From an uncultured virus (IMG/VR IMGVR_UViG_3300037504_000379) (taxonomy: Duplodnaviria > Heunggongvirae > Uroviricota > Caudoviricetes > Crassvirales): a stretch of 20,000 nt of DNA. Below the pieces are notes generated by a model, which worked only from the letters and a program-made list of their open reading frames with translations, searched no databases and was not told the origin of the DNA. The position numbers and the translations under genes are program-made. The DNA is taken from IMG/VR virus record IMGVR_UViG_3300037504_000379; one strand, 5' to 3'. Each line of letters opens with the position of its first letter. The stretch's first letter is position 1. Below are positions 1,997 through 19,876 of this stretch, piece after piece.

Positions 1997-2016
1997 CTAA
2001 CCAAAAACCAACGCTT

Positions 2017-2238
2017 ATGGATTACATTTATAAAAACAAGCCTAGAAAATCAAATAAGTTTGGAGCGATGAGTTTATATTATGACGGTATTTATTATTTC
2101 CCTTCTGATATAAAAGAATCTGACAAACGAAAAGACAAGCCTTTTGAAATACAAGGCGTTTATTATAGAGGTAAATGGTATCAAGATACTTTTTATATAA
2201 CAAATGAATTTAGGGAGTTTCTTTTAAATGCCCTATAA
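2017..2238 (+). CDS. hypothetical protein; stop codon lies in the TAAC box of the first attC-like site
   Basis: ORF track; TAA 2236-2238 is part of CTATAAC. Confidence 0.7.
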   Translation: MDYIYKNKPRKSNKFGAMSLYYDGIYYFPSDIKESDKRKDKPFEIQGVYYRGKWYQDTFYITNEFREFLLNAL

Positions 2239-2330
2239 CGGGCGAGTGTATGGCAATGTAAGCCACGCACTAAACTTTGAATTGAAACAATAACCTAACT
2301 GGCTTATTTGCTATACACATTGTTAGCAAC
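2233..2330 (+). repeat. attC-like site A1
   Basis: CTATAAC(2233) - arm GTGTATGGCAATGTAAGCCA (2246-2265) / arm TGGCTTATTTGCTATACAC (2300-2318) - GTTAGCAAC(2322). Confidence 0.8.
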
Positions 2331-2356
2331 TGGGCGGTTTTAAAAACGAAAATATT

Positions 2357-2650
2357 ATGATGTACGCAAGTAAAATAGAAGTAAAGTATGAGCCACAAAA
2401 AGTCAGATATCAACGAGAAGTAGAGCTACCCGATAGACTACTTACACTTGAAGATATAGGTAAGCACCTAAAGGAAGGTGAAAAGTTTGTATTCTTCCAA
2501 CGTGAAGAGGGTGGGCTTGGACTACCTGTTGATTACATAAGCATACATGGTTACAGGCTTGAAACTGATGAGGAAGTAAAAGCAAGGGTAGCGAAAGCAG
2601 AAAAGTATAACGAAAACTACGAGAAGTTTCATGCGAAGTACAGAAAGTAG
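2357..2650 (+). CDS. cassette-borne hypothetical protein
   Basis: ORF bracketed by GTTAGCAAC (2322-2330) and its complement GTTGCTAAC (2655-2663); C-terminal RLETDEEVKARVAK. Confidence 0.85.
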   Translation: MMYASKIEVKYEPQKVRYQREVELPDRLLTLEDIGKHLKEGEKFVFFQREEGGLGLPVDYISIHGYRLETDEEVKARVAKAEKYNENYEKFHAKYRK

Positions 2651-2654
2651 CCTT

Positions 2655-3146
2655 GTTGCTAACGGCACACAGCTATGAGTAGTGCGGGAATTACAGCACT
2701 GACTTTGATACGAGTATTAACCGCTCCCGCTTCTTTTTTAAGCGTGGGCATAAATATAAATAAAGATGAAAAAACAGATTACAGTAAAAGAAAGAAACAG
2801 TTGGGAAGGCGAAACATTTAATTATGTAATATATGTTATTCCCGAAGAAGAAAACCAAATTCGTGAAAAATGCGAGAAATATGGCGATGGTAGTTTAACG
2901 GTGCAAGAAACCAACTACACCGATGAAGAAATAAAAAAGATGAATGCAGCATCCAGCAACTTATATATGGACTTTATAGCACCGTATGAATTAAAGGGAA
3001 ACGCACTAAAAAAATGGGAAGAATTTGGTGATTGCTTTTACAAAGGTGTTGGTTTAACAAAATTAAAAGCGTTGGAAGAAAAAGAAGCACAGCACTAACC
3101 TTACTACGAGCTACGACACCCGCATTACTCATAGCTGGTGTTGTAG
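2655..3146 (+). repeat. attC-like site A2 whose loop contains a whole gene
   Basis: GTTGCTAAC - arm CAGCTATGAGTAGTGCGGG (2670-2688) / arm CCCGCATTACTCATAGCTG (3119-3137; 18/19 complementary) - GTTGTAG (3140). Confidence 0.8.
2766..3098 (+). CDS. hypothetical protein nested inside attC-like loop
   Basis: ORF track; flanked by GCAC-N9-TACGAG direct repeats at 2693-2714 and 3089-3110. Confidence 0.85.
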   Translation: MKKQITVKERNSWEGETFNYVIYVIPEEENQIREKCEKYGDGSLTVQETNYTDEEIKKMNAASSNLYMDFIAPYELKGNALKKWEEFGDCFYKGVGLTKLKALEEKEAQH

Positions 3147-3168
3147 CATCGTTTTAATGTACTACAAC
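3140..3168 (+). repeat. empty cassette palindrome with CGTTTTAATG loop
   Basis: GTTGTAG-CAT-CGTTTTAATG-TA-CTACAAC. Confidence 0.75.
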
Positions 3169-3241
3169 ATATGAATAAAGAAAGGTGTTTTTAAAATTGC
3201 GGTAAAATGAAACAGAAAATTATTGACAGAATAGAAGAAAC

Positions 3242-3455
3242 GAAACAACAAAGGACGTTAAACGTATAATGTTTAATGTTGCTGAAGCTGAATTTAACAG
3301 TAAGCTTGTTCTTTTAAAATATAGAATTCAACCGGATAAATTTAACAGAGCCGCCTCTCTTTTATGGAAACTTATATTTAATTATTATAGTCCGCAAAAG
3401 GTAAAACCAACGAATTTATTTTAAACACTTAAAACCCATTATTATGAAAACACAA
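3242..3455 (+). repeat. 214-bp direct repeat, copy 2
   Basis: Aligns to 1659-1872. Confidence 0.95.
3269..3424 (+). CDS. hypothetical protein (51 aa), paralog of 1638..1841
   Basis: MFNVAEAEFNSKLVLLKYRIQPDKFNRAASLLWKLIFNYYSPQKVKPTNLF*. Confidence 0.65.
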   Translation: MFNVAEAEFNSKLVLLKYRIQPDKFNRAASLLWKLIFNYYSPQKVKPTNLF

Positions 3456-3569
3456 TCTAAACAAACAACTATCCAGGTTATATTCTTGGCTGAATTTAAA
3501 ACAGTGATCCATGCAAAACGCTTTTATCTTTGCGGAGAGAAGTATAATCTAAGCTTCTATTTAAATTAA
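3444..3569 (+). CDS. small hypothetical protein (41 aa)
   Basis: MKTQSKQTTIQVIFLAEFKTVIHAKRFYLCGEKYNLSFYLN*; same start context as 1861. Confidence 0.55.
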   Translation: MKTQSKQTTIQVIFLAEFKTVIHAKRFYLCGEKYNLSFYLN

Positions 3570-3614
3570 TCCGCAAGTAAAAAAAACATTTATTAATTAA
3601 AAAACTTAATTATT

Positions 3615-3812
3615 ATGTATAGATATAGACTATATTCAACCGGGCACAACTCAAAAGTCTATGGGAATTGTGAGGTTTGCAAAAAACATGTTTCTGAAGT
3701 ATATATCCAGAATGAAGAAAAAATGTTTTTCATGGATGGGCAGGAATATTGGGCCCACAGTTCTATAGTTTTTGGCCATAAACAATGTTTGAGGAACATA
3801 CGGAAAAATTAA
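3615..3812 (+). CDS. small putative zinc-binding protein
   Basis: GNCEVCKKH ... FGHKQC: CxxC plus HxxC. Confidence 0.7.
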   Translation: MYRYRLYSTGHNSKVYGNCEVCKKHVSEVYIQNEEKMFFMDGQEYWAHSSIVFGHKQCLRNIRKN

Positions 3813-3822
3813 TGAAAAAAAT

Positions 3823-3853
3823 TTGACATTGTAAAAAATTTATCATTATTTTG
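3823..3853 (+). promoter_or_regulatory. putative promoter
   Basis: TTGACA-N18-TATTTTG upstream of ORF 3882. Confidence 0.5.
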
Positions 3854-3881
3854 AATTATAAAACTTTAAAACTTATTAGTT

Positions 3882-4559
3882 ATGAATACACAAGACTATC
3901 AAAGAACAGTAAAATTTAAGGATGACAATAATAATTTTGTCATTGCAGAAATAGAAGTAACTCATAGAAATGGTTATCCAGAGTTTACTATGAGTGGAGA
4001 ATACGAAGGAGCACACGGACAAGTTTTTGACCGTGTAAAGCCAGCCAAAACAAGTCAAAGAGAACTTATTGAGCTGTGGAATAAATGGCATATGGAACAA
4101 ATTAATGATCTTGGCTCCTTTGTGAAAAACTTAGATGCGTTACTAGACGACATTGAGGACGAACAAATAAGCAAACAAGTAACTGAAGAAGATTCAGAAT
4201 ATTTTGAATTATTTGATGAGCCGGAAACCGTTCACGCTCTTTCTCTAATGCTTGATTTGACTATTGAAGATATTGATACAATAGAAGAAGAAGGAGATAA
4301 TCGTTTCTCTATTGGTGGTATGGAATATCTTTGCGGCACTGGCGAGGAGATGGATGTATTATGGGATAAGGAGCTAGACCGTTGCTTAGAGGAAATTGTT
4401 TATCCCGATTTGCCTGACTATATGCAAATTTATTTTGATGATGAGGCTTGGAAAAGGGACGCGCGTATAGACGGCAGAGCACACATTTTAAATCGGTATG
4501 ATGGTTCAGAACTTAAATACAAACTAAATGATGTTTGGTATTTTGCATATAAACAATAA
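3882..4559 (+). CDS. highly acidic protein, possible ArdA-like antirestriction DNA mimic
   Basis: Very D/E-rich; C-terminal DLPDYMQIYFDDEAWKRD resembles the ArdA C-terminal 'LP..L..YFDYEA..RD' motif. Confidence 0.5.
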   Translation: MNTQDYQRTVKFKDDNNNFVIAEIEVTHRNGYPEFTMSGEYEGAHGQVFDRVKPAKTSQRELIELWNKWHMEQINDLGSFVKNLDALLDDIEDEQISKQVTEEDSEYFELFDEPETVHALSLMLDLTIEDIDTIEEEGDNRFSIGGMEYLCGTGEEMDVLWDKELDRCLEEIVYPDLPDYMQIYFDDEAWKRDARIDGRAHILNRYDGSELKYKLNDVWYFAYKQ

Positions 4560-4589
4560 AGGGTATTAATTTACCCTTTTCTTTCCTTT
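4558..4589 (+). terminator. intrinsic terminator
   Basis: AAAGGGTA-ttaatt-TACCCTTT followed by T-rich tract right after stop. Confidence 0.6.
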
Positions 4590-4643
4590 ATGGAAAATCC
4601 GCAAATAAGAAACAAAAATGTATAATCTTTAAATTTATAAATT

Positions 4644-4946
4644 ATGAAAACAATAAATTGGCACAATGCTAAAAACAATGAAAAAGGATATTACAAAGAT
4701 GATAACGGAAAAGTCTTTTATTTTAATCCTGCTAGCTATTTAAATTTTACAAGTGATAACGATCAGGATTCATATGATTTTTGGATGACAAATACAGGAA
4801 CTTTAGTAAGAGATAAAAACGATTATTTTGTTTTCTCAGAAATTGGCATTAAAGACGCTTTACGGGATGCAGCCGAACATGAAACTGATATTTCTAACCT
4901 GGCTAAGAAGATGAAAGAGTATGCAGACGAAGTTTTACACGATTAA
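4644..4946 (+). CDS. hypothetical protein
   Basis: ORF track; ATTATG start. Confidence 0.8.
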   Translation: MKTINWHNAKNNEKGYYKDDNGKVFYFNPASYLNFTSDNDQDSYDFWMTNTGTLVRDKNDYFVFSEIGIKDALRDAAEHETDISNLAKKMKEYADEVLHD

Positions 4947-5040
4947 CGGTCACAATCCGTATAAATTCAGAGTGGAACGGAGCGTAAAAAGCTCTTTTAA
5001 TGAAGCTAATTAAATGTTAAACTAAAAAATTAAATGCTTT

Positions 5041-5238
5041 ATGGAACGACAAAACAGACAATTAAAACAATTTCAAGAAAAGTGGCAACAGAATTATAAT
5101 GTTTCTTCAGAAGTAAGAAAAGCTATTGATTATTTTCTGTCTTTAAAAGCAGTCGGAGAAAGAAACGCCAGACAGAAAGTAGAAGAAAAAGGATATATTG
5201 TTCCTTTTGCCCTACTGAAAGATATGAATAAACTTTAA
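5041..5238 (+). CDS. hypothetical protein
   Basis: ORF track. Confidence 0.7.
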   Translation: MERQNRQLKQFQEKWQQNYNVSSEVRKAIDYFLSLKAVGERNARQKVEEKGYIVPFALLKDMNKL

Positions 5239-5286
5239 TTATCGCATATCGCAATATGAAATACTAACAGTTAAAATTTAGTGGTT

Positions 5287-5466
5287 ATGGAAACGATTGA
5301 GACAAAAGTGAAACAAATAACTGACATTAATCAGTTAGCAGCACAGAAAGAAATGTATATCAATGCAGGTTATAAAACCTGTAAAAGATATGAAAACCCA
5401 AGCTTAAAAGTAGTATTTAAACAACACTCTCCGTCTATACAAAAGACAGTGTATTTTAAGAAATAA
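5287..5466 (+). CDS. hypothetical protein
   Basis: ORF track; ATG 5287 (METIETK) preferred to GTG 5281. Confidence 0.65.
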   Translation: METIETKVKQITDINQLAAQKEMYINAGYKTCKRYENPSLKVVFKQHSPSIQKTVYFKK

Positions 5467-5477
5467 ACTTAGTAATT

Positions 5478-6530
5478 ATGGAAACAAAGGAATTGAGAAA
5501 GTTTTGCAAAAAAGCAAACAAATTAAAATCAACACTGCCAATAACAGACAATGTATTGATAAGTAAAGGGCAATTAATTGTAACAGACCTAAAACATTTT
5601 ATTGTTTATAATCCGCCCGAAATTGACCCAGACATTAAATGCTTAATCAATTTTAAAACGTTTAAAAAGATTGTTGACAAGGTAAAAACTGTTGATATTA
5701 TTCCTGGTGATACGGTAGAGCTGGAAACAGATAAAGGAATATACAGCCTAAAACAAGATCAGGGCGTTAATGATTTTCCGGGTTTTCCGAATGATAAGAT
5801 GAGTAGAAAAGACATTTTGTCAACTGAGGATGTAAAGACAATCAAGAGAGCCGTTAATTATACGTCCAGCGATGAGCTGAGGCCAGTAATGGAATGTGTG
5901 TTAATTGATGGTAACTATGTTGTTGCTACAGATGCACACAAACTTCTATATAAGAAAAGGAAGGGAAACGGACATAAATTTTTAATTAATAAGCTTGTTG
6001 CTTCTCTTTTTGAGGATAAACAACATGAAGTTTTTGCAGATGACAAAGATCAATGGATAGGTATTTGGGATAATTTATACGAATATTGGTATATGCAAGA
6101 ACAAGGAACATACCCACAATGGAAAGCAGTTATTCCAGATACAAGTAGCGTTCCGGCTACAGTAAGAGTAAAGGGCAAAGATTTTAAAGAAGCCCTGGAA
6201 GCAGCCGAACCAGTTTTGCCCCCTATTCCAAAGATGAGAATGTATGGCAATGTAAAGCAAAACAAACTCAATCTTTACACCAAAGACCTGGATTTTGATG
6301 TTAGTTATAATACAAATATTTCGGCCAGGTGCAAAGGTGAAAGCATGGTGATTGGAATAAATCAAAATTTTATGCTTCAGATTTTGAAAACGGAGAAATA
6401 CGAAGAAGTAGAGATAAAAATGTTTAATCCAGACAAAGCAATGATTATTAATGATGAGTTATTGCTTATGCCTGTTATGCTTGAGGAAATGGACGAAGAA
6501 CCAACGCCAAATCAACTGGCTGAAGCATAA
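5478..6530 (+). CDS. dnaN: DNA polymerase III beta subunit (sliding clamp)-like protein
   Basis: 350 aa; LPITDNVLI, TDL, SSDELRPVMECV, VATDAHKL, YPQWKAVIP, IGINQNFML and terminal LLMPV correspond to beta-clamp conserved blocks. Confidence 0.85.
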   Translation: METKELRKFCKKANKLKSTLPITDNVLISKGQLIVTDLKHFIVYNPPEIDPDIKCLINFKTFKKIVDKVKTVDIIPGDTVELETDKGIYSLKQDQGVNDFPGFPNDKMSRKDILSTEDVKTIKRAVNYTSSDELRPVMECVLIDGNYVVATDAHKLLYKKRKGNGHKFLINKLVASLFEDKQHEVFADDKDQWIGIWDNLYEYWYMQEQGTYPQWKAVIPDTSSVPATVRVKGKDFKEALEAAEPVLPPIPKMRMYGNVKQNKLNLYTKDLDFDVSYNTNISARCKGESMVIGINQNFMLQILKTEKYEEVEIKMFNPDKAMIINDELLLMPVMLEEMDEEPTPNQLAEA

Positions 6531-6538
6531 ATAAATGT

Positions 6539-6581
6539 AGGGCTTATTATTGTCATATAAGACAATTTTAAGCCCTTTTTT
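6539..6581 (+). terminator. intrinsic terminator after clamp gene
   Basis: AGGGCTTA..ATTGTC-atataa-GACAAT..TAAGCCCT then TTTTT. Confidence 0.7.
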
Positions 6582-6856
6582 ATCTTTGTGGATGTTTACC
6601 CCTCCGCAAAGAATTAAAGCCCTAAAAAAGGCTAAAATATATATTCATTTTTGTAAAGATTGTCAAAAAAAATAAGCCTCAGGGGTTATAATGAGCGAAT
6701 ATAAGTCAATAGACTTATTAGTTTGTCACAAAAATAGGTTGTTAATGTGACAGACGTGAAAAATGATTATAAACCGTGAAAAACAATTATTTTGTCCCCT
6801 ATTTTGTGAATTTTAGGGACAAAACACTACAAAATTAATAGTAAAGTGCAAACATT

Positions 6857-7069
6857 ATGAAACAAGAAGATCAAGACAAATTAATTAAATTAAGCAGGAA
6901 AGCCGCTGATTTAGAAAGAAAGGCGAACATTGAAGGATACTTAGACGGGTTAAAGGTTGCATATAATATTTTAACTGTTAGGGAGAACAACGAGACAATA
7001 AAACTAATTAGAGAAGAAATTAAAAAAGTCAGAAAGGCTAATCCAGGAATAGAACCAACTATTAAATAA
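6857..7069 (+). CDS. hypothetical protein
   Basis: ORF track. Confidence 0.75.
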   Translation: MKQEDQDKLIKLSRKAADLERKANIEGYLDGLKVAYNILTVRENNETIKLIREEIKKVRKANPGIEPTIK

Positions 7070-7094
7070 ATACATCGAATTCGATGCTTTTAAA

Positions 7095-7283
7095 ATGAAA
7101 TACGAGAAGTTTAAAAACCAGTGTTTAAGAAAGAGACGCTACACATACAAACAAGCAGTAAACGAGCTTAAAAAGCTTAATAAGAACAAAACTGTATTTT
7201 ATATGTATGCCTGTCCTCTTTGCAGAAAATTCCATCTCACTAAACAAAGCAGATGTTTAAACAAACAAAATTTAACGCCATGA
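7095..7283 (+). CDS. small basic zinc-finger-like phage protein
   Basis: C..K.RY ... YACPLCRKFHLTK, a pattern common in small phage proteins. Confidence 0.7.
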   Translation: MKYEKFKNQCLRKRRYTYKQAVNELKKLNKNKTVFYMYACPLCRKFHLTKQSRCLNKQNLTP

Positions 7284-7462
7284 CACACAAACAAATTAAG
7301 TACAATGAAATTATCACGGCTATTAAGCAAGCCGAGACACAGGATCAGTTAGATGCTATAATTAGAAAGCATCCTGAGATTATCGTTAATACGCAAGTAA
7401 AACATTTTATTTACATGAAACGTAAAGAAATAATTAATAAGGAGGAGTTATGCGAATATTAA
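7280..7462 (+). CDS. hypothetical protein
   Basis: ATGA overlap with upstream stop favours start 7280 (MTHKQIK). Confidence 0.65.
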   Translation: MTHKQIKYNEIITAIKQAETQDQLDAIIRKHPEIIVNTQVKHFIYMKRKEIINKEELCEY

Positions 7463-7770
7463 TATTTATGTTGTTTGTTGTTATTCTTTCATTATCCACA
7501 AAGGCAGAAAACCCGCCAGAAAGCTATCAAATGTTTAAGGCAGAGTTTAAGAATATGCCTACGGAGACAGTGAAGAGATGGACACCGAAACAAAAAGCCA
7601 TACTGGGGGCTTCTGTTGGGGCTGCTGCCTTTATTGTTGCCGAAGTATTTTTTTACACTGGAGACATTAAGGGGTATAATAAAAGCCTTTTGATAGGAGC
7701 TGGAGTTCATATTGTAACACATATTATTTTACAAGTGACTCATAAGCCCTATAAATATTCATGTCATTGA
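7450..7770 (+). CDS. putative membrane protein with signal peptide
   Basis: Hydrophobic N-terminus and two further hydrophobic segments. Confidence 0.7.
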   Translation: MRILIFMLFVVILSLSTKAENPPESYQMFKAEFKNMPTETVKRWTPKQKAILGASVGAAAFIVAEVFFYTGDIKGYNKSLLIGAGVHIVTHIILQVTHKPYKYSCH

Positions 7771-7811
7771 AATGATTCCGGCAAAAGTTTGAAATTTTCA
7801 AAATTAATATT

Positions 7812-7973
7812 ATGACACAAGCAAATAAAGCATCCAGGCTGTTAGATAAGTTAAGACGTTTGGCAAGTAAACGGCAAAATGAGAGGGAGCTTGCAAAACT
7901 GCATGATAGGCTGGAGAAAAATAAGCCCGTCCTTGTCTCATTTGAGGAAGGACAAGTAAAAATTTTAAATTAA
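7812..7973 (+). CDS. hypothetical protein (53 aa)
   Basis: Manual: MTQANKASRLLDKLRRLASKRQNERELAKLHDRLEKNKPVLVSFEEGQVKILN*. Confidence 0.6.
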   Translation: MTQANKASRLLDKLRRLASKRQNERELAKLHDRLEKNKPVLVSFEEGQVKILN

Positions 7974-8010
7974 ATTTGCATTTCTGATTAAAAATTAATA
8001 TTTTAGAGCC

Positions 8011-8289
8011 ATGTTAATAAGTCATGCATTACAAACAGATCAAAATTTACAGCAAACTGTTGTGAGGATGAGTCAATCCCTAAAGAAGGGAGAAAGTCTT
8101 TTTGCTATCAATTATTGGGGTATTATACGCTTCAAGGTAATAAGAAACAAACGAAACCTCAGAAAATATTGCATCGGTCAGCCAATTTACATAACCAATC
8201 AGAGGTTAGAGTCTACAGATCAGGTTAAAATGATTGGAAACTTAATTAAAACTATGAAAAGAGAAAAAGAATGGATAGGGATGAGCTAA
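8011..8289 (+). CDS. hypothetical protein
   Basis: ORF track; possible promoter TTGCAT-N17-TATTTT at 7976-8004. Confidence 0.65.
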   Translation: MLISHALQTDQNLQQTVVRMSQSLKKGESLFAINYWGIIRFKVIRNKRNLRKYCIGQPIYITNQRLESTDQVKMIGNLIKTMKREKEWIGMS

Positions 8290-8438
8290 TAAAACGATAT
8301 GAGAGACTTATTGAAAAGATTGACAGGATGATTAATCTTTTGTGGACAGAGCCAGGCTCAGAACAAAAAATTATTGAATTGAGAGACAGAAGACAAGTCT
8401 ATAAAACTTTTATAAGCGAATTAAAACTTTTAAAATGA
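8271..8438 (+). CDS. hypothetical protein (55 aa)
   Basis: Manual: MDRDELIKRYERLIEKIDRMINLLWTEPGSEQKIIELRDRRQVYKTFISELKLLK*. Confidence 0.6.
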   Translation: MDRDELIKRYERLIEKIDRMINLLWTEPGSEQKIIELRDRRQVYKTFISELKLLK

Positions 8439-8552
8439 TTTCAAATTATAAAATACTGGAAGAATTGATAGAGATTATCCAAATAGACCATTCTTTTGAA
8501 AGAGAGGAGTTGATCGAGGATAAAGTTTATTGGATTCATTATATTCAGAATT

Positions 8553-8694
8553 GAATATTCAACGTTTACGTATATGACCTATTTGGGATTTGAAATACTA
8601 ACTTATAAAAACGAAATAAAGATGAAAAACGATACAAAAAAACAAAATAGCACCGACACCCAAATGGGTTATAATACGGTGTTATCAGCCGTGC
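8553..8694 (+). repeat. attC-like site B1
   Basis: GAATATTCAAC - arm CGTATATGACCTATTTGGG (8569-8587) / arm CCCAAATGGGTTATAATACG (8659-8678) - GTTATCAGCCGTGC (8681). Confidence 0.8.
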
Positions 8695-8843
8695 TTTCAG
8701 ATAATTATCTGCACTTTGAAACGATTGATGGTGTTGACGGCTGTGTAAGAAAATGTGATTTAGAAAACTGCATTTATCAAACATCATGTCCATTTTTTGC
8801 AAAATGCTATGACAAAAAAAGAGCTGTGCTTTTGCATGGCTGA
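8622..8843 (+). CDS. small Cys-rich protein starting inside attC-like loop B1 and reading into the cassette
   Basis: MKNDTKKQNSTDTQMGYNTVLSAV... with C-x2-C-x4-C-x4-C-x5-C; stop TGA inside GGCTGATAAC. Confidence 0.6.
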   Translation: MKNDTKKQNSTDTQMGYNTVLSAVLSDNYLHFETIDGVDGCVRKCDLENCIYQTSCPFFAKCYDKKRAVLLHG

Positions 8844-9350
8844 TAACGGACAGCAATAAGAAACGTGCGAAATTACGCACAAAACTAAATACGAGTACTA
8901 ATTAAAAAATAAAAAAGCGATGGATTTACCAATGAGCAAAGATTACTCACAAATTAGAGTAGAATTAGGAATTAACGCACAGAAGTTTATACAACAGGTG
9001 CAAATTAACAACCAAACTATTGAAGATCAGATAGCAAAAGGCATAGAATTAGCTATAAATGACATAACCGAAGAGGATAATTTTGTGCAAGCAATACGGC
9101 ACAACACAAAGAAAGAGCTTGAAAATATAGTAAACCAAACCGTAATGAGCTGGGAGGTTAAAAACAAAATTACAAAACTGGTTGCAGAAAAGATTGAAGC
9201 GAAGGTAGAAGCCTATGCCGACCAAATTGCAGAGAAAGTAACAAGTAGCTTGAAATAGTGCGTGGGCTTTTATTTTTTAATTGCTCAATTACGCACCAAA
9301 GCTGATACGAGAACGAAAAGTAAGCATGTTTTTTATTGCATGTTAGCTTT
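8834..9350 (+). repeat. attC-like site B2 whose loop contains a whole gene
   Basis: GCATGGCTGATAAC - arm GCAATAAGAAACGTGC (8853-8868) / arm GCATGTTTTTTATTGC (9324-9339) - GTTAGCTTT (9342). Confidence 0.8.
8920..9258 (+). CDS. helical hypothetical protein nested inside attC-like loop
   Basis: ORF track; flanked by AATTACGCAC-N9-TACGAG direct repeats (8871-8895, 9287-9311). Confidence 0.85.
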   Translation: MDLPMSKDYSQIRVELGINAQKFIQQVQINNQTIEDQIAKGIELAINDITEEDNFVQAIRHNTKKELENIVNQTVMSWEVKNKITKLVAEKIEAKVEAYADQIAEKVTSSLK

Positions 9351-9418
9351 TCGTTTTAATGAAAGCTAACGAAAGTGTAAAGAACGTTTTAATGTTCTTT
9401 ACAGTGTGTTAAATGTTC
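9342..9418 (+). repeat. empty cassette plus minimal attC-like site B3, both with CGTTTTAATG loops
   Basis: GTTAGCTTT-T-CGTTTTAATG-AAAGCTAAC, then GAAAG-TGTAAAGAAC-GTTTTAAT-GTTCTTTACA-GTGT-GTTAAATGTTC. Confidence 0.8.
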
Positions 9419-9450
9419 CACAAAGAAAAAAACCAAATAAATTAATAGTT

Positions 9451-9786
9451 ATGGAAGCAGAAAAAGGAGATTTTATAAGGCACAGGAAAGGACAATGGGA
9501 GGGCATTGTTATAGACGTACATTATAGCGAAGAATTAGAAAGTGTGAGATATATTACAACACGTCTGAGTGATGGATTTGAGTGTGATTTACATGAATCT
9601 GAATTTGATGTAACCTATCGTCCTGGCCTTTGTGGATACGTAAATGTATATAAAGATGAAGATGGAAGTAGATTTATTAGCGATCAAACTTATAACACTT
9701 ATAAAGATGCTTTCGCCTGGAGAGATGAACTGACTAATTACATTGGTACTGTATCAATAGCACAGATATATGAAGGTGACTTTTAA
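9451..9786 (+). CDS. hypothetical protein (SH3/KOW-like N-terminus possible)
   Basis: ATG 9451 (MEAEKGDFIRH..G..GIVIDV) preferred to GTG 9406. Confidence 0.75.
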   Translation: MEAEKGDFIRHRKGQWEGIVIDVHYSEELESVRYITTRLSDGFECDLHESEFDVTYRPGLCGYVNVYKDEDGSRFISDQTYNTYKDAFAWRDELTNYIGTVSIAQIYEGDF

Positions 9787-9796
9787 AATTAGATGT

Positions 9797-11898: not shown

Positions 11899-12058
11899 TG
11901 GAGGAATAAATACAATAATATTTAAGGAACGTGTTTATACATGCTTCTCAAATTTGAACTAAAATCATCTTCGAGGGGTAAACTACTTAAAAACAATTTA
12001 AAGCCCTAAAATAGCTTAATATTAACTTTAAAAACAGATAAATTTAAGTGAAGAGACT

Positions 12059-12244
12059 ATGGCATTAAAAGCTGAAAACATAAAAACAATAGAAGACATG
12101 CAAAATTATGTCGAAGGCGTTATAAATGACTACGAAGCCGGAATAAGTACGAAAGAAGAAACTCTTTCCTTCCTTAAGGATTATACATTTAGAATATTAG
12201 AATTGTGTAACGAAAATAAATTTAACCATGAAAACAATTATTGA
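12059..12244 (+). CDS. hypothetical protein
   Basis: ORF track. Confidence 0.7.
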   Translation: MALKAENIKTIEDMQNYVEGVINDYEAGISTKEETLSFLKDYTFRILELCNENKFNHENNY

Positions 12245-12707
12245 CAAGAACACAGGAAAAGAAATCACTATTAGTGATGAAAGTTATGAATCTTTGTTTC
12301 CACAAAAGAAGAAACGCTGGAAGCCGGACTTGGGTAAAAAATACTATTTTGTAAGCATTACGGGTGATGCTGTTGATACATATATGGATAATGACGAGTT
12401 AGATAATTTTAATTATTACACCTTTAACATGTTTGAAACAAAACAAGAAGCCGAAGCAAAACTCAAAGCTATTAAAAAGAAATACGATATTATTAATCGT
12501 ATAGAAGAACTTAATGATGGTTGGGAGCCTGATTGGGGAAATGATGACTCTAAATATAGTTTATTTATTGATTATGATGAGTTTGATATTTCTAGAGCTA
12601 TACATATAAAAAGAATGCCTGATGAATTATATTTTAAGACAATGGGAATAGGATATACACTCATCTTTGAATTTGGGGATGATCTTAAATATTTATTTAC
12701 ACTTTAA
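12228..12707 (+). CDS. conserved phage hypothetical protein
   Basis: RWKPDLGKKYY...NMFETKQEAE...WEPDW, a pattern recurrent in phage proteins. Confidence 0.8.
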   Translation: MKTIIDKNTGKEITISDESYESLFPQKKKRWKPDLGKKYYFVSITGDAVDTYMDNDELDNFNYYTFNMFETKQEAEAKLKAIKKKYDIINRIEELNDGWEPDWGNDDSKYSLFIDYDEFDISRAIHIKRMPDELYFKTMGIGYTLIFEFGDDLKYLFTL

Positions 12708-13628: not shown

Positions 13629-14333
13629 ATGCAAGACTTTAAAACTATTTTAAATAATTCCGCAAGTGAAAGAGAGATAAATCTTCGCAGTCAATATATG
13701 GCTGGGGAGATTGACTCTCATACCTTCCTGGATGAAGTAACATTTTTAATCAGAAACACAAACGAACTGACAAAACAGATGCAAAAAGAGCTAAGAGTAG
13801 AAGAAAATAAAATAGCAGAGCTTAACAGGAAAGTTAAGGCTTGCACTGGAAAACCTGTCTTCGGACAAGGAAACGTCTACACCGACCTTGTATTTATAGG
13901 AGAGGCAGGTGGAGCTAATGAGGAGAAAACAGGACTTCCTTTTCAGGGTAGGGCAGGTAGGCAGTTAGATAAAGGGCTACACCATGCAGGAATAAGCAGA
14001 AAAGAGGTTTATATTACTAACCTGGTTAAGTTTAGACCTCCAGGCAATCGTAATCCCAACCAGAAGGAGATAGACAAGTATGGGTTTTATCTGTATAAGG
14101 AGATAGATATTATACAGCCTAAGATTGTTGTACCAATGGGTTCTTTTGCTACGAAGTTTATTCTTCAGTCAGAAAAGTCTATTGGAGAACTGAGAGGTAA
14201 GCTGCATCATATAGTGATAAATGGGAATAACTATTACGTGTTTCCTATGTATCATCCTGCTGCTGCATTGTATAACACAAAGCTGCGTATTCCCTTTATG
14301 GAAGATTTTGAATTTTTAGGTAGTATGATTTAA
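13629..14333 (+). CDS. uracil-DNA glycosylase, family 4-like, with N-terminal extension
   Basis: VFGQG, FIGEAGGANEEKTGLPFQGRAG, YITNLVKFRPPGNRNP, YHPAAALY motifs. Confidence 0.9.
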   Translation: MQDFKTILNNSASEREINLRSQYMAGEIDSHTFLDEVTFLIRNTNELTKQMQKELRVEENKIAELNRKVKACTGKPVFGQGNVYTDLVFIGEAGGANEEKTGLPFQGRAGRQLDKGLHHAGISRKEVYITNLVKFRPPGNRNPNQKEIDKYGFYLYKEIDIIQPKIVVPMGSFATKFILQSEKSIGELRGKLHHIVINGNNYYVFPMYHPAAALYNTKLRIPFMEDFEFLGSMI

Positions 14334-14860: not shown

Positions 14861-15121
14861 TTAGTGAGAATACGAAGGTAATAAAAAGAGATGTTCCTTT
14901 TCAAGGAATGGGAGCAATTGAGTATCAACGGTAAAAGGAGTAATCTCATAAGCCTCATACACTTGCAGAAAATCATTATAAATGAGGTATTTCTGGCCTA
15001 CGTTTAAAAGGTAGAAGTCAAAATGATTTGGATCAATGGTGATAAACTCATAAATGCTCTCCACCTTTTTGTATTCTTCCGGTAATTCCTCAAAGCAAGT
15101 AAACCCCCATTTGTCTGTCAT
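14861..15121 (-). CDS. hypothetical protein
   Basis: ORF track; ATGA overlap with upstream gene. Confidence 0.75.
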   Translation of the reverse strand: MTDKWGFTCFEELPEEYKKVESIYEFITIDPNHFDFYLLNVGQKYLIYNDFLQVYEAYEITPFTVDTQLLPFLEKEHLFLLPSYSH

Positions 15122-15513
15122 AAAGCTCCCTCTATGTCTTTATATAGCTTTCTAAACTTTTTATCCGTGTCAACAAGATTGTCTACCGTCTTACACGAAT
15201 GCAACACTGTAGCATGATCTTTCCTGCCAGCCTTAAAACCTATATTTTCCAATGACATCTTAAAATGTTTCTTAGCAAAGCTGTGTACTAATTGTCTCGC
15301 CTGAACCACTTCTCTTTTTCTTGTATTTCCATATATAGCCTTCACTGGCACTCCCGTGTATTGACTCACTGTTCGTTCTAGTCTCTCAAAAGTAATCTCT
15401 TCATCCAGCTTCAAGTGATCAAGAATAGCCAGGTTTCCTTTTCGTAGCTCTCCAAGCTTTACCTTGTGATATTTTTTAATATTCATGTACGTCTGTTTTA
15501 TAGGTGAATCCAT
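15118..15513 (-). CDS. stand-alone DnaA C-terminal (domain IV) HTH protein
   Basis: RKREVVQARQL...MSLENIG...RKDHATVLHSCKTV is the Bac_DnaA_C signature; no AAA+ domain. Confidence 0.9.
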   Translation of the reverse strand: MDSPIKQTYMNIKKYHKVKLGELRKGNLAILDHLKLDEEITFERLERTVSQYTGVPVKAIYGNTRKREVVQARQLVHSFAKKHFKMSLENIGFKAGRKDHATVLHSCKTVDNLVDTDKKFRKLYKDIEGAL

Positions 15514-18001: not shown

Positions 18002-18002
18002 A

Positions 18003-18893
18003 TCAAAACAATTCTGGTTTCACTTCTTTCACTTTATTAAATGTAAAATACTGAAGGCGTTTGTAATCAATCGTTGGATTTTTAAACTTTTTGACATAAT
18101 TCCAGGATTCTTCTTTAACAAGACAATAAAAAACAGTATTAAGAAGCCTTGGGATCATTTTACTCGTCCAACCACTTTCATTTTCTATCTTAGCATATTC
18201 CTTTTCAATTAACGCCTTAGTCACAAATTCACTAACAATATCTTCTTCTACAAGTTTTTTCTCTTTAACTTCCTGAGGCTTTTGTTTATGAAAATTATCT
18301 TTAAATTCGTTACGTACAATTTTAGCCCACGTTTGTCTTCCAAACTTATTTTTCCATTGATAATTTTTAATAACAATACCTTCTCCTGGTTTTTCTCCGT
18401 CAGAAATAAGATAATAATTCCGATCCAAAAATCCTATAAGCTTTTCATGTGTAGGGTTATTTATAACAGCAATAGGCGGAACATATTCTATATTATACTG
18501 ATCAAGTAGCTCTTTATATTTTTCGTAATGCACATATACCCCTGACGCATCATTATAGACATCGAACACATAAAAATGCTTCCATGCGTCATCTCGATAA
18601 TACTTTACCGTATGGGGCACAAGCCATTCTCCATACAGCCTCATATTGGGATGATCTAAAATGAATTGTCTTAAATTATCTTGCTTAACAGCCCAATTCA
18701 TAAATCCTGCATTGTCGTTATCGAGAGCTAATTGTCTTTTACGACTACCGCACCCCATCTGACCTTTGTCTGTGAGCCATACGGAGGCATTTGTTCCATC
18801 TATTTTGGGAAAAATGTAACATGTCCCAATGTCGATTGCTTCGGTTTCCGTAGTTCCAAACTTTTCAACGTGTTGATACTTTTTAAATTCCAT
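18003..18893 (-). CDS. ATP-dependent RNA ligase (Rnl2-like nucleotidyltransferase)
   Basis: Motif I KIDGTN, GSR, LYGEW, FYVFDV, GEGIVIK, AKIV; start MEFKKYQH at 18893. Confidence 0.85.
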   Translation of the reverse strand: MEFKKYQHVEKFGTTETEAIDIGTCYIFPKIDGTNASVWLTDKGQMGCGSRKRQLALDNDNAGFMNWAVKQDNLRQFILDHPNMRLYGEWLVPHTVKYYRDDAWKHFYVFDVYNDASGVYVHYEKYKELLDQYNIEYVPPIAVINNPTHEKLIGFLDRNYYLISDGEKPGEGIVIKNYQWKNKFGRQTWAKIVRNEFKDNFHKQKPQEVKEKKLVEEDIVSEFVTKALIEKEYAKIENESGWTSKMIPRLLNTVFYCLVKEESWNYVKKFKNPTIDYKRLQYFTFNKVKEVKPELF

Positions 18894-18894
18894 A

Positions 18895-19266
18895 TTATTT
18901 ATTTTTATTTGTATAATTCTTATGACATTCCTTACAAAGAACACGAAGGTCTTTTTTGTGACAAAATAATCTTCTGGCAAACCCTTCTATATGTGACCAA
19001 TCTTTAAGAGTTCCTACAGGAATTATATGATCTACCTGCACTCTTTTAGCAGGAAATTCTTCTCCACATTCAGCACATTTGTAATGCTTTGCCAATTTAC
19101 CCGTATCCTTATTCACCTTGCGTCCCACCTCAGCATCTTTTAGCGCCTCATATTTTGGGGGATATTTGTTCCAAGCTTGTCTTAGTGCTGAACGAATAAA
19201 TGTCCAGAATTTAGAATTACTCCAGTTTTCGTAATTTTCAAATATTCCACTCGTTTTTTTAGCCAT
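18895..19266 (-). CDS. HNH endonuclease (FIRSALR-type small phage HNH)
   Basis: YKCAECG...VQVDHI...LRVLCKECH. Confidence 0.85.
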   Translation of the reverse strand: MAKKTSGIFENYENWSNSKFWTFIRSALRQAWNKYPPKYEALKDAEVGRKVNKDTGKLAKHYKCAECGEEFPAKRVQVDHIIPVGTLKDWSHIEGFARRLFCHKKDLRVLCKECHKNYTNKNK

Positions 19267-19876
19267 CTGTTTTTAATATTTCATCTACAGAATAATTTCT
19301 TCTATAACGTTTGTGTATCATCCAATAAGACATTCCTAAATATATAGACCATTGCTTTAATGTCATAGATTTACCCTGATATTCTAATATTACATTGCTT
19401 CTTTTATTATTAGATTGTTCTGTGTAACTAGCCCACTTACAGTTATCAGGATGATAACCATCATCATTATCTATTCTTTCTATTGTTAAGGATACTCCCG
19501 GAACACCCATATCATCTATAAAATTCTTAAAACTATTCTTCCACCTATCACATACAAAAATACCCCGTCCTCCATAATTCTCATAATTGCCTGAATTTGA
19601 ATTATAACATCTATTCTTCATACCTCGCCAAACGCTATAGGCTTTAGGGTATTTTTTCTTGTAGGAATTAATATATTTTGCTTTCATTTTATCTTTCCTA
19701 TAACAGCCACAGCTTTTTGTATGACCATTTTTAAGTCTGTACCCTAAAACCGTAACCTCTTCTCCACAATCACAAATACATGCCCATATAGAGTTTCCTT
19801 TAACGTCACTATTCACCCTCCTCACAACTGATAGCCTATAAAATTTTCTGCCAACAAGGTCTAATGCTTTACTCAT
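19259..19876 (-). CDS. free-standing HNH homing endonuclease
   Basis: DLVGRKF, WACICDCG, KSCGC, MKNRCYN, YGGRGI.VCDRW, IERIDNDDGYHPDNCKWA; ATG at 19876. Confidence 0.85.
   Translation of the reverse strand: MSKALDLVGRKFYRLSVVRRVNSDVKGNSIWACICDCGEEVTVLGYRLKNGHTKSCGCYRKDKMKAKYINSYKKKYPKAYSVWRGMKNRCYNSNSGNYENYGGRGIFVCDRWKNSFKNFIDDMGVPGVSLTIERIDNDDGYHPDNCKWASYTEQSNNKRSNVILEYQGKSMTLKQWSIYLGMSYWMIHKRYRRNYSVDEILKTDG

Follow-up and report, generated by a model that had tools for sequence, protein, structure and literature searches.

Hairpin-framed small genes of a tidal-flat phage as probable cassette arrays of an integron-like exchange system of Bacteroidota and their phages

How does a phage come to carry small genes both between and inside hairpin sites of the kind found in integrons, with no recombinase beside them? 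The question is raised by a 20,000-nucleotide (nt) stretch of DNA from an uncultured Crassvirales virus (IMG/VR record IMGVR_UViG_3300037504_000379), hereafter referred to as the window, in which two short regions, array A and array B, hold open reading frames (ORFs) enclosed by inverted repeats. An earlier reading of the letters alone, called here the sequence-only reading, took them for a multi-level gene-capture system whose recombinase is encoded elsewhere. Arm covariation, recurring modules and linkage to a recombinase in relatives support that proposal, and we infer from them that recombination takes place at the sites. In our judgement, both regions are probably short rows of cassettes that belong to an integron-like system of gene exchange in Bacteroidota and in the phages that infect them, and their units would be exchanged by a Xer-like recombinase acting in trans.

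In each array two hairpin frames alternate, S-sites and closing stems. An S-site consists of TAAC, a spacer of 4-6 nt, a stem of 16-21 base pairs in which some G.T wobbles are fixed, a loop, the second half of the stem, 2-4 nt and GTT. In a closing stem (GTT...AAC) the neighbouring unit pairs by its two ends. Either kind of loop can hold one small ORF, which brings its own leader, and loops without cargo shrink to (T)CGTTTTAATG. The features of the two arrays are the following (aa, amino acids).

2236-2325, plus strand: S-site A1, with TAAC at 2236-2239, GGGCGA, arms at 2246-2265 and 2300-2318 (20 and 19 nt), a 34-nt loop, ATT, and GTTA at 2322-2325.
2322-2663, plus strand: closing stem of array A, GTTAGCAAC(TGGGC) at 2322-2330 with (GCCTT)GTTGCTAAC at 2655-2663; inverted repeat I8.
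2357-2650, plus strand: cargo ORF within the closing stem of array A, 97 aa, no family.
2660-3143, plus strand: S-site A2 with cargo in its loop; TAAC, GGCA, arms at 2668-2688 and 3119-3140.
2766-3098, plus strand: ORF in the A2 loop, 110 aa, with its own leader.
3140-3168, plus strand: empty closing hairpin at the end of array A; GTTGTAG at 3140-3146, (CAT), CGTTTTAATG, (TA), CTACAAC at 3162-3168.
8560-8684, plus strand: S-site B0; CAAC, GTTTAC, arms at 8570-8587 and 8659-8677, GGT, GTTA.
8681-8847, plus strand: closing stem of array B, GTTATCAGCCGTGC at 8681-8694 with GCATGGCTGATAAC at 8834-8847; inverted repeat I6, 14 nt, 93% complementary.
8844-9344, plus strand: S-site B2 with cargo in its loop; TAAC, GGACA, arms at 8853-8868 and 9324-9339 (455 nt apart, repeat I4), AT, GTT.
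8920-9258, plus strand: ORF in the B2 loop, 112 aa.
9342-9370, plus strand: empty closing hairpin of array B; GTTAGCTTT at 9342-9350, TCGTTTTAATG, AAAGCTAAC at 9362-9370.
9367-9411, plus strand: empty S-site B4 at the end of array B; TAAC, GAAA, GTGTAAAGAA, CGTTTTAATG, TTCTTTACA, GTGT, GTTA; hairpin at 9375-9403.

All window sites have the architecture of attC (..AAC, spacer, arm, variable loop, arm, spacer, GTT..), with structure kept over sequence. The layout that the sequence-only reading had described was found throughout: the grammar of AAC, spacer, arm, loop, second arm, spacer and GTT is shared by both arrays, with all the named repeats in place, and the GTT end of each site is complementary to the AAC end of the next. 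Likewise, two sites with loops of 430 and 455 nt enclose complete genes between their arms (ORFs 2766-3098 and 8920-9258), and both arrays end in empty units with the same 10-nt loop, CGTTTTAATG, in the array-end hairpins at 3150 and 9385. The absence of an integrase from the window was also confirmed, as neither a tyrosine recombinase nor a transposase nor an HUH enzyme was found within the 20 kb. The arms of A2 make up inverted repeat I1 (19 nt, 95% complementary, 430 nt apart), and CGTTTTAATG has exactly three copies in the window (3150, 9352 and 9385), each within an empty hairpin.

The array genes are co-directional and have repeated frames, with stop codons in or beside TAAC. In filled frames, TCGTT directly follows the GTT box and (A)AATG directly precedes the AAC box. 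A repeated loop motif, AATTACGCAC..ATACGAG, is found upstream of each cargo ORF (direct repeats D2 and D1), and a terminator-like hairpin with a T-run was seen by eye at 2683-2738. A loop-motif search at fixed spacing was uninformative, with 3 matches against 1.8 expected, and a sigma-70 consensus scan of the window, which does not cover Bacteroidota promoters, gave no enrichment (77 found, 88.8 expected). Two candidate functions of short motifs were dropped. The upstream ATG within GTGTATG, as the start of a conserved leader peptide, runs into a stop in window A1, and the frames differ between sites; the ATG of CGTTTTAATG as a cassette start codon does not agree with the filled frames, in which cargo splits the motif.

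ORF 8622-8843 begins in the B0 loop and reads across the 3' arm, as a check of the frame showed; the closing stem of array B encloses its remainder, and its stop TGA (8841-8843) is followed by TAAC. In six viral loci, ORFs that start in the loop cross the 3' arm in one common frame, ..(L/K)(P/S)IH(N/S)V.., and the window ORF crosses its own arm in a different one.

The stems that enclose three of the ORFs exceed chance. DNA duplex energies were calculated between the upstream 120 nt and the downstream 100 nt of each of 36 window ORFs. The three enclosed ORFs gave -29.6, -26.5 and -26.5 kcal/mol, against -15.9 kcal/mol for the next best ORF and a mean of -10.4 kcal/mol for 250 non-cognate flank controls (standard deviation 2.6, minimum -22.6). 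The folding z-score is -2.6 for region A and -7.3 for region B. The AT-rich window holds 30 exact inverted repeats of at least 10 nt, of which those of 10-14 nt are expected commonly by chance; since short inverted repeats arise so easily, the boxes of 7-9 nt count only in context.

On sequence comparison, the window sites are members of a large family that extends over phage contigs and Bacteroidota genomes. A 15-nt pattern common to A1 and its counterpart in contig L001 closes into a hairpin ending TACAC-N-GTT in 62 of the 121 viral-contig matches listed, and into a hairpin in 28 of 120 matches in prokaryote genomes, mostly of Bacteroidota and allied metagenome-assembled genomes. There are 83 distinct validated sites, ten of which have loops of 182-325 nt with a small ORF or the start of one. 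Window A1 was aligned with 72 of the 73 short sites, 73 sequences in all. The search pattern and filter fix five of the stem pairs and some of the 5' flank beforehand; 97.8% of the cells are paired, and compensatory changes affect 10 of 20 pairs. Covariation scores 0.448, compared with 0.118 for shuffled controls and at most 0.089 for slid controls, and the inner pairs (columns 33-35 with 128-130), which the pattern does not fix, covary heavily. The arms therefore differ in sequence while their pairing is kept, as had been proposed from the window alone. Two G.T wobbles are nearly fixed (71/73 and 51/73), and the excess of G.T over A.C, 149 against 4, comes almost wholly from three fixed columns.

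A model built from the alignment, R1, was used to search 78 of the 119 viral loci fetched. It gave 167 matches in these loci, including dense co-oriented arrays, such as one of ten sites and one of eight. In the window, R1 matches A1 (2228-2332, 81.6 bits, E 6e-20), B0 (8558-8691, 38.9 bits, E 3e-8) and B4 (9359-9418, 24.5 bits, E 3e-4). These three matches and the two cargo-bearing sites form two clusters with no integrase nearby, and by analogy they correspond to a cluster of attC sites that has no integron integrase (CALIN), defined by at least two attC-type sites close together. The bacterial form of the site is a compact element of about 125 nt, and bacterial genomes have only 1-4 pattern matches each, clustered rather than dispersed. 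Rfam gave no match at E<=1 on the window array regions or on 12 related sites.

One member of the family had already been noticed. Qi et al. (2023, PMC9892861) screened 10,705 phage genomes and found 17 CALINs, one of them in Polaribacter phage P12002L, where HattCI predicted the site P12002L_attC1. The oligonucleotide of that site is a member of the window's family, with the CGTTTTAATG loop, at positions 30001-30064 of P12002L. R1 finds at least six further sites in this phage, flanking methyltransferase genes, and two sites in Cellulophaga phage phi18:3, where sites of the family flank DNA methyltransferase genes. Annotation pipelines miss such arrays: screens of the IntegronFinder type found 2 of at least 7 sites in P12002L.

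AAC-to-AAC units of the window recur in other contigs, as do its frames around different cargo. Site A1 is about 89% identical to sites in three other contigs; for the segment 2236-2360, which comprises A1 and the leader, the identity is 88-90%, and the DNA upstream of its TAAC is unrelated. One of the three, L020, has the window's leader and trailer (TAGCCTTGTTGCTAAC) around a different ORF of 58 aa in place of 2357-2650. The module 2660-3167, composed of A2, its ORF and the empty hairpin, recurs in two unrelated contigs, with 88% identity in L318 and 89% in L001; the L001 copy is cut by the contig end, and the L001 phage shares no other protein with the window. Site-bounded units thus occur as discrete modules in unrelated genomes, as the sequence-only reading had expected.

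The same arms also enclose different cargo. Among the 30 matches to A2-type arms that were examined, nine further complete sites surround eight different ORFs of 60-136 aa, and in three contigs the arms surround a non-coding loop of 132-139 nt; the remaining matches are cut by contig ends or lack the second arm. A hairpin identical to 3140-3168 follows A2-type sites in five contigs, including L282, and the homology with L282 and L318 ends at AAC 3167/3168. Contig L285 has the B2 arms and the blocks 8839-8923 and 9256-9347 in common with the window around a different ORF, and three other contigs show a compensatory variant of the B2 arms, with loops of 664 and 337 nt. That genes can lie inside the site loops is therefore real, since the same arms are found around at least eight different ORFs or a short non-coding loop.

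The breakpoints are of two kinds. In the likely source sample (X1), one contig departs from the window ahead of 8844, and a second does so directly past 9370, where it continues into another empty site; in a second sample (X2), a contig joins 8923 to 9254. Contig cover from X2 and X3 is low over 2002-3335 and 8672-9338, to which we attach no weight. Outer breakpoints lie at the AAC box (2236, 2658-2663, 3167/8, 8844 and 9370), and inner breakpoints lie at start and stop codons. The sequence-only reading had looked for exchange at the G/TT junction. Its expectation of units bounded by sites holds in relatives, but in the window orientation the breaks fall at the AAC box and not at G/TT. When all viral loci were compared with one another, no informative syntenic pair with a cassette insertion or deletion emerged.

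Arrays of the same family are linked to a recombinase in relatives. In Bacteroidales bacterium CF (L248), 12 co-oriented sites are followed by the gene of a 283-aa tyrosine recombinase, which scores 192.3 bits on NF040815 (cutoff 220) and 166.9 bits on the integron-integrase model TIGR02249 (cutoff 265). Its closest solved structures are archaeal XerA and next IntI4 (2a3v). The enzyme appears to lack the IntI-specific insertion, because the match to IntI4 stops at residue 174. An IntI with its specific extra domain was found beside an array neither in the window nor in the recombinase of the related arrays. Homologs of the L248 enzyme (E<=1e-40) are present in 112 of 301 sampled Bacteroidota genomes and form a tight group at 46-53% identity. 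Of the 30 Bacteroidota loci listed, each covering the gene and 1.5 kb on either side, 11 have an R1 site directly past the 3' end of the recombinase gene, in constant geometry, and among the window and 127 phage-derived loci homologs adjoin arrays in four viral loci. The co-occurring tyrosine recombinase that had been called for was thus found next to arrays of this family.

Two further observations concern these neighbourhoods. In L248, the stretch that separates the last array site from the 3' end of the recombinase gene contains TATAAC..CGTTTTAATG..GTTATGG at 12230-12290, which may be the entry site of the array. In phage phi18:3 (L249), a 428-aa tyrosine recombinase, gp037, is encoded about 600 nt beyond the site-bearing genes.

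The sites are directional, with an asymmetric internal loop (6 nt vs 3 nt) and the fixed wobbles. In viral loci the ORFs are on the wobble-bearing strand in 26 cases and on the opposite strand in 1, with 29 undecided. Genome loci show 15 opposite, 4 same and 8 undecided, and three of the four exceptions have phage-type sites; sites are antisense to the ORFs in all three bacterial arrays inspected. The canonical integron polarity, in which the ORF is upstream of attC and the folded strand is antisense, is found in 15 of the 19 decidable bacterial sites and is absent from the window. Phage sites are inverted relative to their ORFs when compared with bacterial arrays, and so the exchange point AA|C in the window orientation would correspond to G|TT on the other strand. 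Since the wobbles keep to one strand of the site whether the ORFs are sense or antisense, the asymmetry is one of the DNA site rather than of the mRNA, which speaks for single-stranded DNA as the substrate, as with attC.

Several observations weigh against an exchange system of this kind. The analysis covers assembled contigs only, and no recombination event or circle was seen in them. The recombinase is absent from the 20-kb window and from all five array-bearing viral contigs searched, one of which is rated 100% complete. Outside the three fixed wobble columns, G.T is not clearly above A.C (8 vs 4). Of six sites in Qi et al. (PMC9892861), P12002L_attC1 is the only one that yielded no verified IntI1 junction. 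Compared with bacterial arrays, the phage ORFs are inverted relative to the sites, and direct capture of host cassettes is therefore only conjectural. Furthermore, relatives have ORF-precise deletions outside the arrays, at about 3584-3821, 6853-7073, 7096-7280, 9437-9796 and 12039-12224, in contigs of two other tidal-flat samples and with 1-21 replacement letters. Because small ORFs are missing so precisely outside the arrays, turnover of small ORFs is general in the early region and not confined to them. Finally, plain homologous recombination would also explain why different ORFs are found in identical frames and why the breaks there lie at start and stop codons.

The last of these points leads to the strongest alternative, in which the frames serve as conserved regulatory cassettes, be it as promoter, leader, terminator or stem for processing, and the ORFs shuffle by homologous recombination alone, without a dedicated recombinase in the phages. 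A model for such behaviour is provided by promoter-early stem-loops (PeSLs), which are sequence-conserved promoter-terminator units acting through homologous recombination. In them, too, conserved intergenic stem-loops in phage accessory regions flank small ORFs of unknown function, and the ORFs are exchanged between the stem-loops. PeSLs of T4-type phages have been treated by Arbiol et al. (2010, PMC2839356) and Comeau et al. (2014, PMC4122927). The ORF-precise swaps within identical leaders and trailers agree with this explanation, as do the motif AATTACGCAC..ATACGAG upstream of each cargo ORF, the T-run hairpin at 2683-2738 and the lack of an encoded recombinase in the five array-bearing phage contigs; the ORF-precise deletions elsewhere in the window's relatives lend it further support. 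Unlike PeSLs, however, the window's family has arms that vary with compensation, stems that span whole genes and a linked tyrosine recombinase. A system driven by homology would not need arms that vary yet keep pairing. Outer breakpoints that cluster at the AAC box, and the same site family arrayed behind a tyrosine recombinase in bacteria and some phages, also speak against it. Moreover, bacterial sites that are antisense to the ORFs are hard to fit to a promoter or terminator role. We regard this explanation as unlikely, though it is the most serious of the alternatives.

A second alternative places the stems in RNA. Long-range pairing would loop each cistron out of a polycistronic early mRNA, whether for RNase III-type processing, for stabilisation or for coupling of translation, or else the S-site would be a new self-cleaving ribozyme. 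In phages, 26 of 27 decidable sites bear their wobbles on the mRNA sense strand, and the fixed G.U positions (71/73 and 51/73), the stop codons in or beside TAAC, the strong RNA fold z-score of region B and a twister-like candidate in the same early region all agree with this alternative. A role at the RNA level is weakened, however, because in bacterial arrays that strand is antisense to the ORFs, both in 15 of 19 decidable sites and in the three arrays inspected. In addition, neither the window array regions nor 12 bacterial sites match Rfam, and some 3' arms are coding, in different frames. This explanation appears to us improbable. That the units are transposon-like, resembling miniature inverted-repeat transposable elements mobilised by a transposase and nested by repeated insertion, is very improbable: inverted repeats flank each unit, the bacterial form is compact (about 125 nt) and the nesting resembles insertion of one transposon into another, but the reading fails because of the low and clustered copy number (1-4 pattern matches per bacterial genome) and because the arms differ between units and hence offer no common transposase-binding end, and neither a target-site duplication at the AAC/GTT joints nor a transposase nearby was seen.

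The integron-like reading, which we prefer, would work as follows. Once a unit is circular or folded, its R and L boxes would pair into one stem with a loop at each end, and either loop could take cargo. One stem with two loops would account for genes between sites as well as inside sites, and also for the empty partner loop reduced to TCGTT|TTAATG. The sites would fold in single-stranded DNA, a Xer-like recombinase would cut and rejoin them at the AAC/GTT box, and this enzyme would be supplied in trans by the host or by a co-infecting phage. Units could thereby pass from phage to phage and perhaps to and from host arrays, and the shuffling is probably increased by homologous recombination between the conserved frames. 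A more specific version, which we advance only tentatively and with less confidence than the general reading, is that Bacteroidota phages run a polarity-inverted Xer-type integron, in which a two-ended folded site holds cargo between sites or in a terminal loop, and in which arrays without a recombinase are serviced in trans by rAID-type enzymes of the host or by those of a co-infecting phage.

The likeness to integrons and CALINs, including phage CALINs, is extensive. Both have small co-oriented cassettes, imperfect hairpin sites with AAC and GTT boxes, structure conserved over sequence, stop codons in the AAC box, complementary cassette ends and cassettes without an ORF. In contrast to integrons, the recombinase associated with the window's family is Xer-like, has 283 aa and falls short of the integron-integrase cutoff, pairing of the boxes extends over 7-14 nt, the site loop can hold cargo, and the phage site is inverted relative to the ORFs. 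Vibrio cholerae repeat (VCR) arrays hold many unrelated ORFs with near-identical sites, and a canonical IntI is present. To our knowledge, their ORFs lie between sites and never inside a site loop. The A2-type and B2-type frames recur around different cargo in a similar way, but the window's family carries ORFs inside the site loop too, and the window has no IntI.

The layout of the bacterial arrays has been published as rAID-1 (Ross et al. 2019, bioRxiv 10.1101/471110). As described there, rAID-1 has a XerD-like tyrosine recombinase followed by co-directional low-GC genes with repeats "reminiscent of integrons", is located in chromosomes of gut Bacteroidales and carries immunity genes as cargo. 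It is defined there by a 5' XerD-like recombinase at least 44% identical to BF9343_RS08045, and the window has no recombinase. L248 and the surroundings of its recombinase homologs have the same layout, and the link is drawn from layout because homologs of the L248 recombinase, when searched for, came back under generic XerD or tyrosine-recombinase names only. The window arrays share with rAID-1 the co-directional genes with repeated intergenic frames; they differ in being located in a tidal-flat phage, in having no recombinase, in ORFs of no known family and in inverted polarity. The IntegronFinder 2.0 paper calls integrons rare in Bacteroidetes.

The literature searched, which did not cover the supplements of bioRxiv 10.1101/471110, yielded nothing on this site family in phages, on cargo in site loops or on inverted polarity. 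The view of the system as new, held in the sequence-only reading, is therefore to be divided: loop cargo and inverted polarity were not found in print, but other parts have been published, with rAID-1 (Ross 2019) and the phage CALINs (Qi 2023). The layout is common in Bacteroidota and phages and has so far been described only in pieces.

The window as a whole has 33% GC and many small ORFs without families, and it looks like the early or replication region of a phage. Its other assigned genes are the following.

5478-6530: sliding clamp.
13629-14333: UDG-family protein.
15118-15513: DnaA C-terminal domain protein.
18003-18980, minus strand: RNA ligase, 54% identical to that of Cellulophaga phage phi18:3.
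18895-19882 and 16136-16684, both minus strand: HNH endonucleases, two adjacent genes beside the RNA ligase gene and a third, weak HNH-like ORF nearby.

The HNH genes may be homing elements; contigs of samples X2 and X3 skip window 18002-18894 and 19214-19874 in the area of the HNH and RNA ligase genes. Tidal-flat metagenome runs contain DNA near-identical to the window, and no RNA run is listed for it. The phage collection gave no megablast match to it, and the window's own left end was not found among the metagenome contigs. The clamp protein has no relative in the viral contigs, and its close homologs are on contigs of at most 3.7 kb. The four array ORFs (2357-2650, 2766-3098, 8622-8843 and 8920-9258) have no Pfam or PHROG match, and a protein atlas gave no usable match for ORF 2766-3098. 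Upstream of array A, 1904-1947 and 1975-1985 comprise a hairpin ATAGTAGCC..GGCTACTAC with GTTTTTAATG after it, which may be a worn unit, and a string that resembles the T-arm of a tRNA, GGTTCGATTCC, although ARAGORN calls no tRNA. At 4939-5013 on the plus strand, in the gap after ORF 4644-4946, there is a full-length match to the type-P3 twister ribozyme (RF03154) with 32.9 bits, below the gathering score of 39.9. It begins TAACGGTC and ends TTTTAATGAAGCTAA, which resemble the array-site motifs.

What the window adds to the family is a clean, small example of loop cargo with comparative proof from identical arms, together with breakpoints on the AAC side and inverted polarity. Identical frames around many unrelated ORFs give a concrete handle on the birth of cassettes. 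If the tentative model of a polarity-inverted Xer-type integron is true, such frames would offer a view of cassette genesis, an open integron question, and phage accessory genes and host defence cassettes would be one exchangeable pool. Host arrays in which defence and immunity genes are stored are relatives of this system, and the accessory genes concerned are, in the window's relatives, often DNA methyltransferases and probably, more widely, counter-defence genes. Should the sites be active, a major marine and gut phylum would have phages with a dedicated, structure-guided means of swapping small accessory genes, and integron-type biology would then take in viruses, a recombinase that lacks the IntI signature and a hairpin loop that carries cargo.

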